A stretch of 10,663 nt of DNA from a virus (taxonomy: Duplodnaviria; Heunggongvirae; Uroviricota; Caudoviricetes), in IMG/VR virus record IMGVR_UViG_2802429253_000003; one strand, 5' to 3'. Shown here one piece after another: positions 2,436 to 10,652 of the stretch. Both the position numbers and the translations under genes were made by a program. The notes beneath the pieces were generated by a model. That model was not told where the DNA came from. It worked only from the letters and a program-made list of their open reading frames with translations, and made no database searches. Numbering within the stretch: position 1 is the first letter of the stretch; each line of letters starts with the position of its first letter.

Positions 2436-2717
2436 TCACATCCAGCCACGAAGTTGATGCTCAACAGCAACCGCGTATTCATCGAATAATGACGATATTT
2501 GCGAATCATTAATGATGCGCACGTTTACAAAATATCCGTCCTCCTTAACACATACCGGCTCGCCATCTTCAGTAAGTTCTCCGGTTTCTTTGTACACATT
2601 ACCTATCACGTCAATAAGAATATCATCCTGCATCGACTCGTCATCATAATAGCCAATACTCTCCATAAAGGCCGAAAAGTCGGCCCTGTCGGCAAATTTG
2701 AGTGTTAAATCTTTCAT
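2436..2717 (-). CDS. Small, highly acidic hypothetical protein (93 aa) translationally coupled to stf
   Basis: Its ATG (2715-2717) overlaps the stf TAA stop (2717-2719) as TAATG. By my count it has about 21 Asp/Glu against 7 Lys/Arg. It sits where tfa is found in lambda but has no Tfa-like motifs. No family recognised. Confidence 0.55.
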   Translation of the reverse strand: MKDLTLKFADRADFSAFMESIGYYDDESMQDDILIDVIGNVYKETGELTEDGEPVCVKEDGYFVNVRIINDSQISSLFDEYAVAVEHQLRGWM

Positions 2718-5092
2718 TAGATTGACTCCCCCATCTGAGCATCAGTCAATGCCTTGTGCCATATTCTGAAATTCCTGACATGACCAAATAAATGACGTAA
2801 CCCGGCTGTAGTCTGGCCTCCAATACGGATAATTGCGGTGTTCTGAATACAGGACCATGTGGTTTTTGTTTCGCTGGATATATGCCCGTTACTTACTGAG
2901 CACGTAGACTGCTCTGACTTTACACGCATCCCCATAACCATTTTTTCAAGCGATGCGTTTTCGTTTACCCGTCTGTTAGCTCCTCCAATATCGCAATAAG
3001 GAAATCCGTCATAATCTGTTGAACGACCGAAGCCAAGAATAATAGCCGCTCCGGTTTGATGACCGCCGGTATCAAAAACACGCGGTGCTGCATTTGGCGT
3101 TTTATACCAGTTCTTATGTACCTCACAAAGAACTGTAAAAGGAAGATTATAAAGGTTATTCTTGATTGGGACTGTCACCATATCGCTTGCGCGAGTGCTT
3201 GCAGTTATATCAGTTACAATAAATGACGAAGCACTTGATCCACCTTCCACTTGTGGAGTTGCGATATCCAGATAGTCTCCAGATGCTGTGCCTGAACCTT
3301 TTACTGGAGCATATTGAACCATCGCACCAATCATGCTCTCTGTATCTAGTGCATTAATTGTAGCCTGATAGAAAATCCAACCAGTAGCCTCATCTTTTAC
3401 AGCTTTTGCAATAATACGATTTGCTGCACCACCAGTCTTATCAATTACAAGTGTTGATAAATTGAGGTAAGCATCTCCCAAAAAAGTGTAAGTAGAACCA
3501 TCATGATGTTCAAATCTTAAACGACACCTTATATTTTCAACATCACTTCTGACACGGCATGAAATGGTCACATATTTTTCATCACCTGTGACATCAAATC
3601 CTTTACTGCCAGAAACCGTTACGATATTAATCGCACTTGTCTGATCAATAAGAGTATCTTTTACAGTAAATCTCCCATAAGTAAAATTAAAAGAATCCGT
3701 GGATATTTCTGTGAGTTCCAGATTGCCTGACTTATTCCATTTAGATGGATTTGTTGAATTAAGCAGAAGATTAGTTCTTTGCCCCTCAATAAGCAGGCCA
3801 TCACGTTCAAATCGCGGCTCGTCAATGGCAGCCTCTGTCAGTACACCAGATTTATTAATATAGGTTGCTTTCGATGCGCGTTTAAACTTTACAATCTTGT
3901 CGCCAGGCATTGTTATTTCATCGTCGCCAATAACAATTTTTTTATATGATGGCGAAAAGCCCGTAATCATATCCAGTGAATCGTTAAACGGTATCCACAC
4001 ATCAGGAAGCGGCTGTAAGACATATTTATACGGCTCTGCTGCCTGGCTTGCGTACTCCCTGGCTGCGTCTTCGCTTGCTTTAGCTGCCGTCTGGCTTGCT
4101 GCCGATGCTTTCGCTGAGTTATCCGCCGCAGTCTCGCTCGCCTTTGCGTTGGTTTCACTGGTTTTTGCAGCTTTTTGACTGTTGGCTGATGCAGTGGCAG
4201 AAGAAGCCGCCGCACTTGCAGAACTGGCTGCGGCACTCTCGCTTTCAGCTGCTGCATCCTGACTGCTTTTCGCCGCAGTTTCACTGGCTTTGGCATTCGT
4301 TTCGCTGGTCTTCGCTGCCGTCTGGCTGGACTTTGCGTTAGTTTCACTCGTCTTCGCAGCTTTCTGGTTGTTAGCCGCAGCAGTTGCTGATCCAGCTGCT
4401 GAAGTCGCAGAACCGGCTGCCGCGCTCTCGCTTTGGGCTGCTGCAACCTGGCTGTTTTTTGCCGCAGTTTCACTGGCTTTAGCATTCGTTTCGCTGGTCT
4501 TCGCTGCCGTCTGGCTGGACTTTGCGTTGGTTTCGCTCGTCTTTGCGGCTGTCTCGCTATTTTTCGCGTTGGTTTCTGATTTTTTGGCTGCTGTCGCGGA
4601 GTTTGCTGATGCAGTCTGTGAGGCCGCTGCCGCCTGTGCACTATTAGCTGCATTCGTTTCTGAGGTTTTCGCCGCGTTCTTCGATGATGCCGCTGCAGTT
4701 TCTGATTTCTTTGCCGCCGCTGCGCTCTGAGAGGCGGCTTCAGCGTTGCGTGCCGCTTCTTCCACCATTTCCTCAAAACGACGCAATGCCTCCGGCATGA
4801 CATCATCTTCCGTCATGGCACCGAGAAAATCATTCAGCGTACCTGGTCTGGAACCTTCATAGACGGTAATGGTCCCGGCATGTGAAGGCGGAAAACCTTC
4901 AACCAGCAGGATGACGCTGTACTGGCCATACTCAACATCCATGCTGTAACGCCCGGCTTCATCCGGATTTTCAGAGGCCACCGTGTTCACCAGTACCGTG
5001 GTGCTGTTACGTTTTGCTTTCAGCTGGATTGTGCAGTTCTGTACCGGTTTTCCTGTGCCGTCTTTCAGTACACCTGAAATCTTTACTGCCAT
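2717..5092 (-). CDS. stf: Side tail fibre protein Stf: lambda-like N-terminal domain, Ala/Ser/Thr-rich repeat shaft, divergent distal domains ending in a putative LamG-like lectin fold
   Basis: N-terminus MAVKISGVLKDGTGKPVQNCTIQLKA... matches lambda Stf as remembered. The ORF track begins at GTG 5098, but the ATG at 5092 gives the lambda-like MAVK start with GGGGTGA upstream. The central region is repeats of the type AAKTSETNAKSSQTAAKTSETNAKASETAAK. The last ~110 aa end in ...GHVRNFRIWHKALTDAQM, resembling the C-terminal signature of LamG/concanavalin-like jellyroll domains. Confidence 0.9.
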   Translation of the reverse strand: MAVKISGVLKDGTGKPVQNCTIQLKAKRNSTTVLVNTVASENPDEAGRYSMDVEYGQYSVILLVEGFPPSHAGTITVYEGSRPGTLNDFLGAMTEDDVMPEALRRFEEMVEEAARNAEAASQSAAAAKKSETAAASSKNAAKTSETNAANSAQAAAASQTASANSATAAKKSETNAKNSETAAKTSETNAKSSQTAAKTSETNAKASETAAKNSQVAAAQSESAAAGSATSAAGSATAAANNQKAAKTSETNAKSSQTAAKTSETNAKASETAAKSSQDAAAESESAAASSASAAASSATASANSQKAAKTSETNAKASETAADNSAKASAASQTAAKASEDAAREYASQAAEPYKYVLQPLPDVWIPFNDSLDMITGFSPSYKKIVIGDDEITMPGDKIVKFKRASKATYINKSGVLTEAAIDEPRFERDGLLIEGQRTNLLLNSTNPSKWNKSGNLELTEISTDSFNFTYGRFTVKDTLIDQTSAINIVTVSGSKGFDVTGDEKYVTISCRVRSDVENIRCRLRFEHHDGSTYTFLGDAYLNLSTLVIDKTGGAANRIIAKAVKDEATGWIFYQATINALDTESMIGAMVQYAPVKGSGTASGDYLDIATPQVEGGSSASSFIVTDITASTRASDMVTVPIKNNLYNLPFTVLCEVHKNWYKTPNAAPRVFDTGGHQTGAAIILGFGRSTDYDGFPYCDIGGANRRVNENASLEKMVMGMRVKSEQSTCSVSNGHISSETKTTWSCIQNTAIIRIGGQTTAGLRHLFGHVRNFRIWHKALTDAQMGESI
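4083..4740. repeat. In-frame tandem direct repeats inside stf (189-bp period, at least two full copies, within a broader degenerate short-unit repeat region)
   Basis: Near-identical DNA at 4276-4340 and 4465-4530 (offset 189 nt, 63 codons), and again at about 4143 versus 4332. These encode the Ala/Ser/Thr-rich shaft repeats of Stf. Confidence 0.8.
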
Positions 5093-5103
5093 ATTCACCC
5101 CAC

Positions 5104-5130
5104 AAAAAAGCCCGCCTGAACCGGCGGGCT
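5104..5130 (-). terminator. Intrinsic terminator between lom and stf
   Basis: Minus strand reads AGCCCGCC-GGTTCA-GGCGGGCT followed by TTTTTT: an 8-bp GC-rich stem, 6-nt loop and U-tract. The U-tract runs directly into the stf ribosome-binding region (GTGGGGTGAATATG). Confidence 0.6.
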
Positions 5131-5156
5131 GTCATAACACTGTGTTACCTGGCTAA

Positions 5157-5756
5157 TCAGAACTTATAACCGACACCCACGATGAAACCGTCAGTGCGCC
5201 AGTCGCCACTGCCGGAGCCTTCATAAGCAATATCAATGGCCACGGATTCGGTCGGGTTAAACTGCACGCCAGCTCCCCACGCCAGAGACGTGTTGCTGTG
5301 GCGACCGTCATCACTTCCGGTCAGCACATCGTGCGTTTTCCCCTTGTTGTCAGTTACGCGAAGATAATCCCCGGAGAAAGTCGACACACGGCTGTAAGCC
5401 ACACCCGCCATCGCATACGCGCTGAACCATTCATTCACGCGCACAGACGGCCCCGCCATCACGCTGAACCAGCGGTTACGCACGGAATCTTCATGCCAGC
5501 GGGTATCGCTGTAATGGGTTTTTTGCTCATCTTTGGCATTGGCATAACTGAATGACGTCACCAGCCCCAGCGTGTCCGTAAATTCATAACGGTATTTCAC
5601 GTTAATGCCCTTCAGGTCATCACTGCCTGGCATATCAGTATGGGTCTGAAGATACCCGGCGCTTAGTGTGGACTGATGCTCTGCTGCGCTCGCTGGCGTA
5701 CCAGCGGCAACCAGCCAGACTACTGCGGACAGAATAACAGCACATAATTTACGCAT
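5157..5756 (-). CDS. lom: Lom outer-membrane protein (Ail/Lom/PagC/OmpX family beta-barrel)
   Basis: 199 aa with an N-terminal signal peptide ([24 protein letters not shown]) and the typical C-terminal ...[10 protein letters not shown]. Near-identical to lambda Lom as remembered. RBS GAGAGGT upstream of the ATG. Confidence 0.93.
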
Positions 5757-5780
5757 AATTACCTCTCGCTTTTCTGCAAT

Positions 5781-5804
5781 AAAAAAGGCGTCATTTCTGA
5801 CGCC
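5781..5804 (-). terminator. Intrinsic terminator downstream of J (position corresponds to lambda tJ)
   Basis: Minus strand reads GGCGTCA-GAAA-TGACGCC followed by TTTTTTATT: a 7-bp stem, GNRA-type tetraloop and U6 tract. It lies between the J stop (5824) and the lom RBS. Confidence 0.6.
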
Positions 5805-5823
5805 CGTATTGGGGTTATAAAAT

Positions 5824-8800
5824 TCAGCTGATACTGATGCCTGCGGTGGCTTTCTTCATCACCACAACCAGCAAATCGCTGATACTTGCTGTGGGATACC
5901 AGTTATTTACCAGCCATGCTGACACCGAAAACTCCAGTGTCATGTGACCGTGACCGGCAGGCATATCAATAACGCCACTGTAAATCAGCGTATTATCCAG
6001 CGCGGTACGGTTATAAATTTCAGCACCGTTTTTCCGCACTATCAGACGGCATGAGGAGTAAATATCAGTATGCTCTCTCTCATGCTTAGCGCCACTGAAT
6101 GCCACCGCCGGAATAACAATTTGCCGGTCAAACGGCTGATCGTCATAAACCCTGACGGTAATGGTCCCTGATGGCCACCGCTCCGGTGCTCGGGAGTCAC
6201 GGGGGAAAGCTTTGCCCACTGTTTTAACGAGATCGCCTTCAATCTGGTTCGCGGACAGTTTTCCCAGAACCCGACAGTTCTCGTTAATCGTGACGTTGTT
6301 GAGCGTCCCGGAGTTCGCATTCACGTTACCGCTGATATCGGCATTTTTCGCCGTCAGCCGCCCGTCCGGCGTCAGGGAAAATGCAGGAGGATTACCGCCG
6401 CTGGTGATGGTCGGGGCCGTCAGACGCTTCAGGAACACGTCGTTCATGAATATCTGATCGCCCTGACCAACAAACATCGGCTTTGTGTTGCCATTCGCAG
6501 GATTAATCATCGCAATCCTGTCCGCCGCCAGCAGCACCTGACTCTGCATACCGTCAGGAGTATTCTCAATACCGGCACCAATACCCGCGATATAAAGGCG
6601 TCCGTCCTGCATCTGCTGCAGCTTCACAGCCCACATGCTGTTCAGGTTATTATTTGTATCAACCTGAACCTTCTGTATCTGCTGGATCGCTGCACTCTGG
6701 TCTTCCAGTTTCTTATTGACGGTCTGCGTGATTTCATTGCTGACACCCGTAATGGACGTCCTGATTTCAGCCAGGTCAGGCGCAAGCTGACCGTTATCAA
6801 TCTGCGTCCACAACTCCTGAGCCAGATGGGTTTTCCCTATCTCTCCTTTGAAAAAATTCAGATAGCCGGATGCATCATCACTCGGCTGGCCAACAGCCTC
6901 CACAAATGCCGATTTGCCAACGGTGTTCACACTGCGGATGTAAAAATAATAATCATGGCCCGGTTTGATATTGATACTGGCGGCTATCCAGTACAGCGCC
7001 GTGCCAAGATAGCGTGCTGTGGTTTCAACCTGCCTGATATCCGCAATCCGCTTTTCCGAGAACCAGAACTCAAACTGTACCGTCGGGTCATAAACCGCAA
7101 GATGCGGCGTGGCGGTTATCTGAAAATAGCCCGGAGTCAGCTCAATCTGTGACGGCGCTGCCGGTGCGGCAATCCGGAACGATACCGACGCCGGGTCTCC
7201 CTGCTGCCCCCAGGCATTTACTGCCCGGACTGTCAGCCTGTAGTTCCCCAGCGCCAGCTGCCTGAAGCGGTATGTTGTTTCCGTCGTCCGGGCCGTGCTG
7301 ACCAGCCGCTCACTGCCGTCGTCCGCTGTTACGGTCAGACGGAGCAGGAAGCTCACGCCCTTCACCACCTTCGGTGTGTCCCATCGCGCCAGCACCTGAT
7401 ATTCCCCGCTGTCTGCATTGACTTCTGCGGTCAGGTGCTGCACCGCGGGCGGCGTGACACCGTTCACCGTTCCGCTCTGGTCGCCGTCAAAGTGCGCCCC
7501 GTTATCCACGATGGCTTCTTTCTCCGGTACATGCTGCACGGCAGTGATGGCATACGTGCCGTCATCGTTCTCACGGATACTCACGCAGCGGAACAGGCGC
7601 TGGCGCAGCGTCGGCAGCTTCAGCCCCCACACGCTGTATTCTGCAACGCCGTCAGGAACACGACTCACTTTCACCTTCACGCCGTCGGTGACGGACTGAA
7701 CCTCCACGCTGACCGGATTACCACTTCCGTCAACCAGGCTTATCAGCGTGGTACCGGAGGATGGCAGCGTGATTTCACGGTCGAGCGTCAGCGTCCGGGT
7801 CTGGCTGTTCACCGCCAGCACGCGACCACCGGTGCTGATACCGGCATAGTCATCATCGCAGATTTCAATAACATCGCCCGGCACATGGCGAAGCCCTTCT
7901 GCGCCCACGCTGAAATCCACGGTCTGCGTCTCCAGCAGTTCCGTTTTAATCAGCCACAGCCCGGCGCGGTGTGCCTGCCCCCGGCTGGTACAGCCAAAGG
8001 CATCCATCTTCGTGACATTACGACCGTAACGGGCAATGGCCTGCGTATCTTCAACAAGCTCTGTCGCCGTCTCCCAGCCGTTATTCGGGTCAATCCAGTT
8101 CACCTCAACGGCATTATGGCGGTCCTTCAGGGCGCTGAAGCTGTAGCGGAACGGCGCGCCATCATCCGGCATCACCACATTACTGCGGTTATAGGTCCAC
8201 ACCTTATCCGACGGTCGGTCCTGCACGAACGTCAGCGTCTGCCCGTTCCATACCGGCATACAGCGCATCGCCGAGCAGAAATCGCTGAGAACATCCCACG
8301 CCTTACGCTGCGTGGTCAGGTAAGCGTTACAGGTGATGCGCGGCTCCGTGCCACCAAAGCCATCCGGCACCGACTGGTCGCAATTCTGGCCGATGACATA
8401 CAGCGCCCATTTATCCACATCCGCTGCACCAAGACGTTTCCCCATGCCGTAGCGCGGATGGGTCAGCATATCCCACAGACACCAGGCCATGTTGTTGCTG
8501 TATGCCGGTTTAAACGTTCCGTCCCAGATACCGCTGTATTGTCGCGTCTGCGGGTTATAGTTCGACGGCACCTGCAGAATGCGCCCGCGCAGATGATAAT
8601 TACGGCTCACCTGCTGGCTGCCGAACTGCTCCGAATCCACCTGCACGCCGACCAGTGCCGTGTTCGGGTAGCACTGTTTCACATCGATGATTTCGGTGTA
8701 TGACGACCAGAGCGTTTTGTTCTGCAGCTGGTCTGTGGTGCTGTCCGGCGTCATCCTGCGCATCCGGATATTAAACGGGCGCGGCGGCAGGTTACCCACC

Positions 8801-9303
8801 ACCACCGAGGCCAGATACTGCGAGGTGGTTTTGCCCTTAATGGTGATGTCTTTTTCCGTCACCCAGCCACCGTTACGTTGTATCTGAACCAGCAGGCGGA
8901 CTTCCGATGGATTCCTGTCCCCCTTTGAGGTGGTTTCCACCAGTGCCTGCACACCGAAGGTAAAACGCAGACGGTCGATGTTTGCCGACGTGATGGTCCG
9001 GGTGATCGGCGTGTCGTATTTCACTTCCGTACCCAGTACCGTCTCGGAACCTGATGATTCAAATCCCTCCGGCGGTGTCTGCTCCTGCTCACCTGCCCGG
9101 AACACCACCGTGACACCGGAGATGTTGGTATTCCCCTCACTGTCCAGCACCGGTGTACTGTTCAGCAACACGCTTTTTAATCCATCCCCCGGACCTTCAA
9201 TCGGCCCTTCGCTGATGGCATCGATCACACTCAGCAACTGCGTGGATTTCAGGTTGTCCTTCGCTTCGCGCGGGGTATGCCCCTTACTGCTGCCTTTACC
9301 CAT
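5824..9303 (-). CDS. J: Tail tip / host specificity protein J (central tail fibre)
   Basis: 1159 aa. The N-terminal ~800 aa ([38 protein letters not shown]...) is recognisably lambda J. GGAG Shine-Dalgarno about 9 nt upstream of the ATG. The C-terminal part appears more divergent from lambda J as I remember it. Confidence 0.95.
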
Positions 9304-9363: not shown

Positions 9364-10011
9364 TCATCGACCAATCACCACAACCTGACCACCATCCCCT
9401 TCGTCTGCCGTGCTGATCTCCTGAGATACCACGCGTGACCCCACGCGCATTTCACCGTACAGAACGGGCAGAACATTCCCCTGGGCAACCATGTTATCCA
9501 GTGAGGAGAAATACGTGTTCTGTTTGCCGTTATCCGTTGTCTGTGTGCGGGGAGTTCTGGCTTTCGGTGCCAGCATCTGCGCCACACCGCCCAGGATCAT
9601 ACTGGCCCCTACCGCATACATACCCGATACAGCCGCGACACCCAGCCAGCCCACAGGGTTCCACCATGCCACCGCAATCAGCGCAGCCCCCAGCACTGCC
9701 TGAAAAACACCGCCACTTTTGGCACCCGCCAGACGCGGTACGATGTGGATCACGGCACCATTTGCCAGCGGCTCATTAAGACGGGCAGATAATTCGTTTT
9801 CGCCTGCATCACGCCCGGCAATGCGCACCTGATACCAGCCCTCATTCAGTTTCTGACGAAACGCCGGGAGCTGCGTGGCCAGCGCCCGGATAGCTTCGGC
9901 TCCCGTTTTCACACGAAGGTCGATGCGGTGGCCAAATCGTTGCAAATCCCCGTAAAGGCAGATGCGTGCCATGCCCGGTGACGCCAGAGGGAGTGTGTGC
10001 GTCGCTGCCAT
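9364..10011 (-). CDS. I: Tail assembly protein I
   Basis: 215 aa. N-terminus MAATHTLPLASPGMARICLYGDLQRFG... and C-terminus ...VLPVLYGEMRVGSRVVSQEISTADEGDGGQVVVIGR match lambda gpI as remembered. The start lies inside the 3' end of K. Confidence 0.9.
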   Translation of the reverse strand: MAATHTLPLASPGMARICLYGDLQRFGHRIDLRVKTGAEAIRALATQLPAFRQKLNEGWYQVRIAGRDAGENELSARLNEPLANGAVIHIVPRLAGAKSGGVFQAVLGAALIAVAWWNPVGWLGVAAVSGMYAVGASMILGGVAQMLAPKARTPRTQTTDNGKQNTYFSSLDNMVAQGNVLPVLYGEMRVGSRVVSQEISTADEGDGGQVVVIGR

Positions 10012-10652
10012 TTGTCGGTATACCTCTCTCGTTTGCTCAGTTGTTCAGGAATATGGTGCAGCAGCTCGCCGTCGCCGCAGTAAATGGCGGCATGATTCGG
10101 CACCGATGAACCAAAGCAGCACAGCAGCACATCGCCCGGCTGCGCCTCTGTCAGTGCGGCACGGTAAAAACCAGTCGCCTCCATATTGTCAAGATAGAGA
10201 TTCTGGCCGTTACGCCACCAGTCATCCCCGCGATGAAAATCCGGCATCTCAATTCCCGCCAGATGGTAAGCGTCCCGGAACAGCGTGTAACAGTCCGTCA
10301 CCCCGTGCTCAAAGCGCCGCCCGGTGAGATGCGGCACACAGCGGAACTTATGAATCGCCCCCCGGCAGACCAGCCACCACGGCAAATCACTCTGCACCTG
10401 CAGCCGCCGGTCGGCCTCACTCAGCCAGGGCAGACCACCGGGATGACTGTGGACCAGCGCCACAATCTCACCCTGCATTTCTGCCTGCAGCCAGTCCTCC
10501 GGCGACATCCGGAAATAATCCTCCGGCTCACCGGAAATATTCACGCAGGGAAAATATCTTTCCCCCTCCGGCGTTCTCACCACGAAGCCGCACGACTCCG
10601 CTGGCGCACATCGCCGGGCGTGCGCCAGAATCGCTGATTCTGTCTCTGTCAT
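9909..10652 (-). CDS. K: Tail assembly protein K (MPN/JAMM domain plus NlpC/P60-like domain)
   Basis: 247 aa. JAMM motif HSHPGGLPWLSEAD (H-x-H-x7-S-x2-D) and a C-terminal NlpC/P60-like Cys/His context (GVTDCYTLF ... NHAAIY). It overlaps I by 103 nt in another frame, the same overlap length as I recall for lambda. Confidence 0.9.
   Translation of the reverse strand: MTETESAILAHARRCAPAESCGFVVRTPEGERYFPCVNISGEPEDYFRMSPEDWLQAEMQGEIVALVHSHPGGLPWLSEADRRLQVQSDLPWWLVCRGAIHKFRCVPHLTGRRFEHGVTDCYTLFRDAYHLAGIEMPDFHRGDDWWRNGQNLYLDNMEATGFYRAALTEAQPGDVLLCCFGSSVPNHAAIYCGDGELLHHIPEQLSKRERYTDKWQRRTHSLWRHRAWHASAFTGICNDLATASTFV

Follow-up and report, generated by a model that had tools for sequence, protein, structure and literature searches.

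A small acidic protein paired with the StfC tail fibre tip: a putative mobile lateral tail fibre module of coliphages and their relatives

We analysed a 10,663-nt stretch of DNA from a virus of the Caudoviricetes (IMG/VR record IMGVR_UViG_2802429253_000003; the whole stretch is called the window below) and found that ORF93, a small acidic gene product encoded directly 3' of a side tail fibre gene, most likely forms, together with the C-terminal StfC module of that fibre, a horizontally mobile tip module of lateral tail fibres, in which ORF93 would be a late-expressed cytoplasmic accessory protein. From comparison across phage lineages, we give a little better than an even chance to ORF93 being an assembly factor, or a cap, dedicated to the StfC tip of the fibre.

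The fibre locus and the ORF93 gene

The window corresponds to the right end of a lambdoid prophage, and its genes are given here in the order of the minus strand. The genes K (9909-10652), I (9364-10011), J (5824-9303) and lom (5157-5756) come before the gene of a Stf-like protein of 793 aa (2717-5098), which is followed by ORF93 (93 aa, 2436-2717), by a 346-aa distal fibre with a Peptidase_S74 domain (1386-2426), by the last member of the cassette, a predicted membrane protein of 107 aa from phrog_1443, a PHROG of unknown function (1051-1374), and by a remnant of tfa, the lambda-type tail fibre assembly gene (922-1032). A terminator-like hairpin lies between lom and stf (5109-5130, minus strand). 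From stf through ORF93 to the 346-aa gene we detected neither a terminator-like hairpin nor a promoter-like site above chance, so that these three genes would form one late transcription unit. On the plus strand there is, at 39-818, a GGDEF diguanylate cyclase ORF with a TTG start, in which no more than the final third of a MASE4 membrane sensor domain is left; the prophage boundary has probably cut a host gene short here. The window contains no tRNA gene.

The stop codon of stf (TAA, 2719-2717) and the start codon of ORF93 (ATG, 2717-2715) overlap by 1 nt as TAATG, and a Shine-Dalgarno-like GGGGGAG (2732-2726) stands 8 nt 5' of the ATG, the whole coupling signal spanning 2715-2732 on the minus strand. 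An earlier note on this DNA had placed the 93-aa ORF and its overlap with stf exactly. It had also read the overlap as a sign of stoichiometric co-expression, of which coupled translation is supported and a 1:1 ratio, by the overlap itself, is not. At the 3' end, ORF93 stops with TGA (2438-2436), and nine bases, GGAAGGAAA (including GGAAGG), lead to the ATG of the 346-aa ORF at 2426.

The Stf-like protein has a lambda-type N-terminal anchor (Pfam phage_tail_N, residues 3-133) and an Ala-rich repetitive shaft, together at 4010-5098, followed by StfC, a C-terminal module of 430 aa (residues 364-793; 2720-4009, minus strand as well) recognised by our own profile, by NCBIfam and by PDB comparison. 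The listed GTG start of stf (MNMAVKISG; 5092-5098, minus strand) is probably two codons too early, since the Pfam match starts at residue 3, which is an ATG (MAVKISG...). Within the shaft, positions 4124-4576 are made of tandem repeats of 189 nt (2.3 copies) and 42 nt, of the KTSETNAKxSETAAK type, and two ORFs lying over the shaft (3967-4806, minus strand in another frame, and 4290-4730, plus strand) were discarded as repeat artefacts. As for the 107-aa protein, the PGAP version has 97 aa, so its second Met is probably the true start. Members of its family (97-107 aa) lie directly 3' of the small gene in phage 21 and ev243, the phage 21 copy being annotated with 2 transmembrane domains, and its gene may be either a moron or one for superinfection exclusion.

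ORF93 is a genuine gene, as follows from a full-length family match, from purifying selection and from its presence in many genomes. Its residues 1-93 match positions 1-92 of the 92 positions of phrog_1361 (E = 5e-46), a PHROG of unknown function; tblastn finds relatives in 181 phage records, and its allele group is present in 988 of 5,426 complete E. coli genomes (~18%), where it is always called 'hypothetical protein'. Across 41 distinct alleles of 282 nt, the median pairwise dN/dS is 0.20. An antisense ORF of 69 aa (2499-2708, plus strand) was rejected as a real gene, being without homologues and with all the protein-level conservation residing in the minus-strand frame; that stops interrupt it in only 5 of the 41 alleles weighs little.

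Members of the family have 85-110 aa and share a signature, MxDxxLKF at the start, then DxIG and G[YW]x[VI]NxR, and R-x-W-x at the C-terminal end (QLRGWM in the window), with length and motifs retained down to about 30% identity. The family reaches prophages of Buttiauxella and Cupriavidus, and in prophages of Betaproteobacteria, found by a genome scan with a single distant family protein as query, the motifs persist at 25-30% identity. An exhaustive profile search of 1.84 billion cluster representatives matched no more than 92 clusters, which makes the family a small one, if well defined. None of these 92 representatives is a fusion to a fibre protein, suggesting that the small protein works as a separate polypeptide. 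Longer members that could have passed for domain fusions turned out to carry loop insertions or to be frameshift products, and the long multi-stretch matches P0216, P0224 and P0246 are PKD-like or TPR repeat proteins, which we discarded as compositional or strand-motif artefacts. One divergent member stands out: the small protein of phage EmilHeitz (locus L006, 5001-5333) has a 14-residue insertion, ends in ...STLEAL and is without the otherwise invariant C-terminal R-x-W, and the StfC of this phage is still 46% identical to that of the window.

ORF93 resembles no characterised protein by any of the searches performed. It matches no Pfam family at E <= 1, Caudo_TAP (PF02413) included, no NCBIfam family at E <= 0.1, tail fibre assembly models included, and no PADLOC model of anti-phage defence at E <= 0.1, which bears out the absence of Tfa-like motifs remarked on in the earlier note. 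Among PDB sequences only GAPDH appeared, at E = 0.04, a chance match. AF2 was uninformative from the single sequence (pLDDT 55); with an alignment of 45 sequences it predicted a compact beta-alpha-alpha-beta4-alpha fold, a four-stranded sheet packed with helices (pLDDT 84, pTM 0.71). The last ten residues of this model, which hold the invariant R and W, are disordered or of low confidence, and a disordered R-x-W tail of the kind predicted would be typical of a partner-binding peptide. With the model as query, Foldseek returned nothing at E <= 1e-3 among all PDB chains and only uncharacterised proteins of uncultured phages in BFVD; no likeness to Tfa, gp38, S74 domains or DNA mimics emerged from the fold searches. 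The remote homology check that had been proposed, by sequence and by Foldseek on the predicted structure, therefore gave no characterised relative, and no description or characterisation of a protein of this family was found in the literature. A receptor-blocking or superinfection-exclusion role was also considered and rejected, as inspection of ORF93 revealed no signal peptide or hydrophobic segment.

Linkage of the small gene to StfC

StfC combines a beta-sandwich like that of the RcGTA head-spike fibre with further, variable domains on its C-terminal side. NCBIfam GTA_spike_fiber matches Stf residues 436-637, the module resembles the RcGTA head-spike fibre Rcc01080 (PDB 6tb9, E = 8e-5), and the C-terminal part of Stf has no Pfam match. 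In Gp22 of IrisVonRoten (Bas32), whose C-terminus is a StfC homologue, a protruding galectin-like domain was described in the second BASEL paper (PMC11990801). We built a StfC profile from Stf residues 364-793, iterated on a small sequence set, and applied it to seven annotated phage loci of different families and to about 100 IMG/VR and genome loci. In this sample, which is redundant and dominated by near-identical E. coli prophages, the upstream ORF ended C-terminally in StfC, reaching the last profile positions, in every one of the 106 loci where it was readable, the proteins concerned ranging from 336 to 1478 aa. Four further loci, checked separately, again have the small gene directly 3' of a StfC fibre. 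The pair is found in the lambdoid phages 21 and ev243, in KarlJaspers (T1-like), IrisVonRoten (T5-like), KarlBarth (Dhillonvirus), JenP2 (Nonagvirus; Queuovirinae) and EmilHeitz (rV5-like, with a 1478-aa fibre), and also in Cupriavidus prophages and metagenomic relatives at about 30% identity. StfC itself occurs in 218 phage records. Phages with a divergent StfC that the first tblastn search had missed, namely AKFV33, phiG7, HMD-P3 and the Aeromonas phage AhSzq-1, have a divergent member of the small family directly 3' of StfC (E = 1e-12 to 1e-30). In Lambda_4C10 (L123, LR595861.1), an insertion element carrying three genes annotated 'mobile element protein' (4243-6659) interrupts the end of StfC and separates it from the small gene, so that the side fibre is probably inactivated.

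The coupling seen in the window is general in the family. Stop and start codons overlap at 97 of 110 scorable junctions, by 1 nt in 61 and by 4 nt (ATGA or GTGA) in 36, and at the remaining junctions the gap is of 0-45 nt, never larger. What changes between lineages is the surroundings of the pair: the N-terminal anchor of the fibre is that of lambda Stf in lambdoids and that of T5 Ltf in IrisVonRoten, others are found in the T1-like, Dhillonvirus and Nonagvirus fibres, and EmilHeitz has an unrelated N-terminal part of 1060 aa. The downstream gene changes as well, and the StfC and small-protein pair stays constant. At the same position rV5 has an S74-type fibre (gp41) and no small protein, which fits a small protein tied to the StfC-type alternative.

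The replacement of tfa can be read from the window. The earlier note had observed that ORF93 occupies the place where the fibre assembly chaperone normally sits, and the tfa fragment at 922-1032 agrees with this, as does the homologous locus of E. coli 7CC, where a truncated tail fiber assembly protein is annotated at the position of the tfa remnant. The fragment shows that the StfC cassette replaced the original 3' end of stf and 5' end of tfa by recombination. That ORF93 could be a novel fibre chaperone or adaptor, as had been suggested, is favoured by the linkage to StfC and by the lack of any known chaperone family among its matches. The 346-aa protein had been put forward next to Stf as a partner, and here our results differ: the partner would be StfC, since fibres of the 346-aa type are absent in phage 21, ev243, rV5-like phages and distant prophages.

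The same linkage bears on a second suggestion, that ORF93 is an anti-defence protein riding in the late operon, whose acidic surface would imitate DNA and inhibit restriction or another DNA-binding defence. The acidity is real: 12 Asp and 9 Glu against 4 Lys and 3 Arg, the same 21 against 7 counted before, give ORF93 a pI of 4.05 and a net charge of about -14, and acidity is kept across the family (net charge -5 to -16.5, pI 4.05-4.8). T7 Ocr, ArdA and T4 Arn are likewise small and very acidic, and Ocr and Arn are similar to ORF93 in size. Only about 7 columns of the family alignment, however, are consistently acidic, the remaining charge lying in a variable loop, and neither the PDB sequence search nor Foldseek against PDB shows likeness to known mimics. 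Of a mimic like Ocr, ArdA or Arn one would expect early or pre-early expression, independent of structural genes. The small gene lies in what reads as a late transcription unit, where no promoter-like site above chance precedes it, and in every lineage it is coupled to the fibre gene in the lateral-fibre locus and never occurs away from StfC. This includes T1-, T5- and rV5-like phages, which are strictly lytic and express their anti-defence genes early and at other loci. We regard DNA mimicry as very improbable.

Conservation pattern and candidate roles at the fibre tip

Divergence of the small protein tracks that of StfC (Spearman about 0.8), and splitting StfC into sub-regions revealed no preferred region, with values of 0.77-0.80 throughout. 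Between pairs whose small proteins are at least 90% identical, the first 100 residues of StfC have a mean identity of 83% and the remaining three quarters of 59-63%. Conservation within StfC, as judged from 21 lineage representatives, is concentrated in the first ~80 residues, in a short stretch near residue 270 and in the last ~30 residues. In this way the small gene forms a conserved island between the variable distal domains of StfC on its 5' side and the variable body of a distal fibre on its 3' side. Since the small protein is conserved while the distal domains of StfC vary, its binding target would have to be a conserved element of StfC.

A gene so placed, between two cassettes that often recombine, and more conserved in sequence than its neighbours, could also have a passive role or one unrelated to the fibre, either as a homology anchor at a recombination hot spot or as a regulator of downstream translation. 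Hybrid alleles such as P0163, which joins a KarlJaspers-like N-terminal part to a window-like C-terminal part, are compatible with such a role. Conservation, however, is at the level of the protein and not of the DNA, with a dN/dS of 0.2 and motifs kept at 25-30% identity, and AF2 confidently predicts a compact fold; across lineages so far apart, an anchor would not have preserved reading frame, length and C-terminal motif. A role of this kind therefore appears unlikely to us.

Trimeric phage fibres generally need an aid for folding of their C-terminus, which comes as a protein of its own (Tfa, gp38, gp57A) or as an intramolecular S74 domain. Peptidase_S74 (PF13884) was absent from both ORF93 and Stf in Pfam searches, and of a Tfa partner the window has only the fragment; as Stf has neither, a role of ORF93 as assembly factor or cap is the one that we favour. 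We hypothesise that ribosomes finishing Stf re-initiate at the overlapping ATG, so that the small protein would be made beside the newly released C-terminus of Stf. It could then bind conserved elements of the fibre tip, the first ~80 and the last ~30 residues of StfC being the candidates, probably via its invariant unstructured R-x-W tail, and would serve as the assembly factor or cap needed by a fibre that has no Tfa-type partner or S74 domain. ORF93 would thus take the place of Tfa in function and stand outside the Tfa family. Both the physical binding of ORF93 to StfC and its chaperone or cap activity are what we infer from these patterns of sequence. Two observations count against an assembly factor. 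In E. coli prophages the small protein is at least 90% identical where distal StfC is only ~60% identical, and a chaperone for a variable tip would be expected to vary with it, which implies that ORF93 acts on the conserved parts or is structural; moreover, StfC is about neutral in net charge and offers no obvious electrostatic match for a partner of -14.

The possibility that the small protein is structural is best considered together with the gene that follows it. This gene differs among loci, making the 346-aa protein an optional third component of the cassette: phage 21 and ev243 have the 97-107-aa membrane protein here, the window, JenP2, KarlJaspers and IrisVonRoten have S74 fibres that vary in length, rV5-like phages have a conserved protein of the baseplate region, and Cupriavidus has unrelated small ORFs. 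In the window, the 346-aa protein has Peptidase_S74 at residues 227-278 (nt 1593-1748), a variable body and the N-terminal peptide TSTVIPDDIKTLK (nt 2382-2420). A peptide of this type, T-x-T-x-IP-x-DI-x-x-LK, opens the downstream protein, whose gene starts 9-18 nt behind the small one, in 81 of 111 loci, and is followed by at least five different bodies, among them the 346-aa S74 fibre, one of about 232 aa (these two both found in E. coli prophages) and a T-shaped RBP of 572 aa. It is also carried by the differently built distal fibres of JenP2, IrisVonRoten (gp24), KarlJaspers, KarlBarth, AKFV33 (orf135) and phiG7, and among the records examined it was seen only next to StfC and small-protein pairs. 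The peptide looks like a conserved docking plug of distal fibres.

A structural role would accordingly be one in which the small protein remains part of the virion, at the end of the proximal fibre, and makes up, with the conserved start of StfC, the socket for this plug in a branched or two-segment fibre, much as T4 gp35 is a monomeric hinge. As a universal joint, it would allow one proximal fibre to carry interchangeable distal fibres. In favour of a joint are the frequency of the peptide in front of variable bodies and its confinement to these loci, as well as the conservation of small protein and peptide alike, as islands between two cassettes that vary. The GenBank label of bas32_0023, the 92-aa family member of IrisVonRoten, is 'tail fiber protein', and Gp24 of this phage is said to attach to the StfC-bearing proximal fibre Gp22, in a description that does not identify the joint or discuss gp23 (PMC11990801). 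As to names, the proximal fibre is 'Gp22' in the legend of Fig 12 of that paper and 'Gp23' in its main text, and bas32_0023 is the 92-aa small protein despite the latter usage. Against a joint, the small protein is equally conserved where no distal fibre follows, as in phage 21, ev243, two IMG/VR prophage loci and rV5-like phages, and likewise in Cupriavidus, Buttiauxella and metagenomic relatives, so that docking of a distal fibre cannot be its core function. Furthermore, the peptide is missing from the downstream fibres of HMD-P3 and AhSzq-1 and was not found in rV5-like myoviruses. We consider the joint the main rival of the assembly factor or cap, possible if on balance doubtful; were it real, this plug-and-socket would be common to sipho-type coliphages (lambdoid, T1-like, T5-like, Dhillonvirus, Queuovirinae). 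Assembly factor or cap and structural joint are compatible roles and do not exclude each other.

Comparison with known fibre systems and significance

The closest functional counterparts are lambda Tfa, P2 gpG and Mu gpU (Caudo_TAP, PF02413), which like ORF93 are small and encoded directly 3' of the side-tail-fibre gene in the late operon. ORF93 physically replaces tfa here and would, like Tfa, be expected to act on the C-terminus of the fibre. Unlike Tfa, it has no Caudo_TAP match, is about half the size, and is conserved instead of co-varying with the receptor-binding part; its partner tip is RcGTA head-spike-fibre-like, not lambda/T4 gp37-like as for Tfa. As it fails to match the family HMM, ORF93 should not be filed under the Tfa family. 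Peptidase_S74, as in T5 pb1 and the K1F endosialidase, is another answer found at this locus: it terminates rV5 gp41 and T5 Ltf, where the fibres of EmilHeitz and IrisVonRoten end in StfC and are followed by the small protein. The S74 domain is covalently attached and self-cleaving, whereas ORF93 is a separate polypeptide.

For Alteromonas phages V22 and A5, separate fibre chaperones were proposed to be transient caps (Gonzalez-Serrano et al. 2023, PMC10579305). As here, a fibre and its cognate chaperone make up one host-recognition module that moves between morphologically unrelated families (PMC10579305). By analogy, this mobile module of fibre plus chaperone is the nearest published concept to what we describe. 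The hosts differ, there is no detectable homology to ORF93, and the V22 and A5 chaperones were reported to be similar to intramolecular chaperone domains, a likeness that ORF93 did not show in fold searches.

Branched fibres, in which a proximal fibre carries a separately encoded distal fibre via the conserved N-terminal peptide of the latter, have been described before (PMC4728585). LtfA-LtfB of DT57C, gp14-gp15 of phiEco32 and gp34-gp35-gp36 of T4 resemble the StfC loci in being branched or two-protein lateral fibres. The fusion product of DT57C ltfAB and phiEco32 gp14, however, gave no match to the StfC profile, a search of the fibre region of phiEco32 revealed no gene for the small protein, and phiEco32 gp15, reported to be similar to the LtfB N-terminus (Golomidova et al.), starts with a different peptide. 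On these three grounds we consider DT57C and phiEco32 a separate system. In AKFV33, orf137/orf135 had already been described as a two-protein fibre, with orf136 between them not discussed, and the virion proteomics covered four large gel bands (PMC3326045). Proteomics of rV5 does not bear on the small protein, since rV5 has the S74 allele. The published fibre descriptions of AKFV33 (PMC3326045) and of IrisVonRoten (PMC11990801) thus both skip the small gene.

The PHROG 1361 gene is common and catalogued but unstudied, and its product, if a fibre accessory protein, would lengthen the short list of such phage proteins by a new family, known in functional kind but unrelated in structure. StfC with its small partner is present in about 18% of complete E. 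coli genomes and in model collections in wide use, among them the BASEL phages Bas06, Bas32 and Bas49. The O-antigen types that a coliphage can get through depend on its lateral tail fibres, which are the principal target when host range is engineered; T5-like and T1-like phages need them only on hosts bearing O-antigen. The role proposed here is expected to be easily testable, and it would be useful for host-range engineering and not surprising in principle: if the small protein is required for assembly of the fibre or for attachment of its distal part, then transplanted fibre modules would have to carry the small gene with them.
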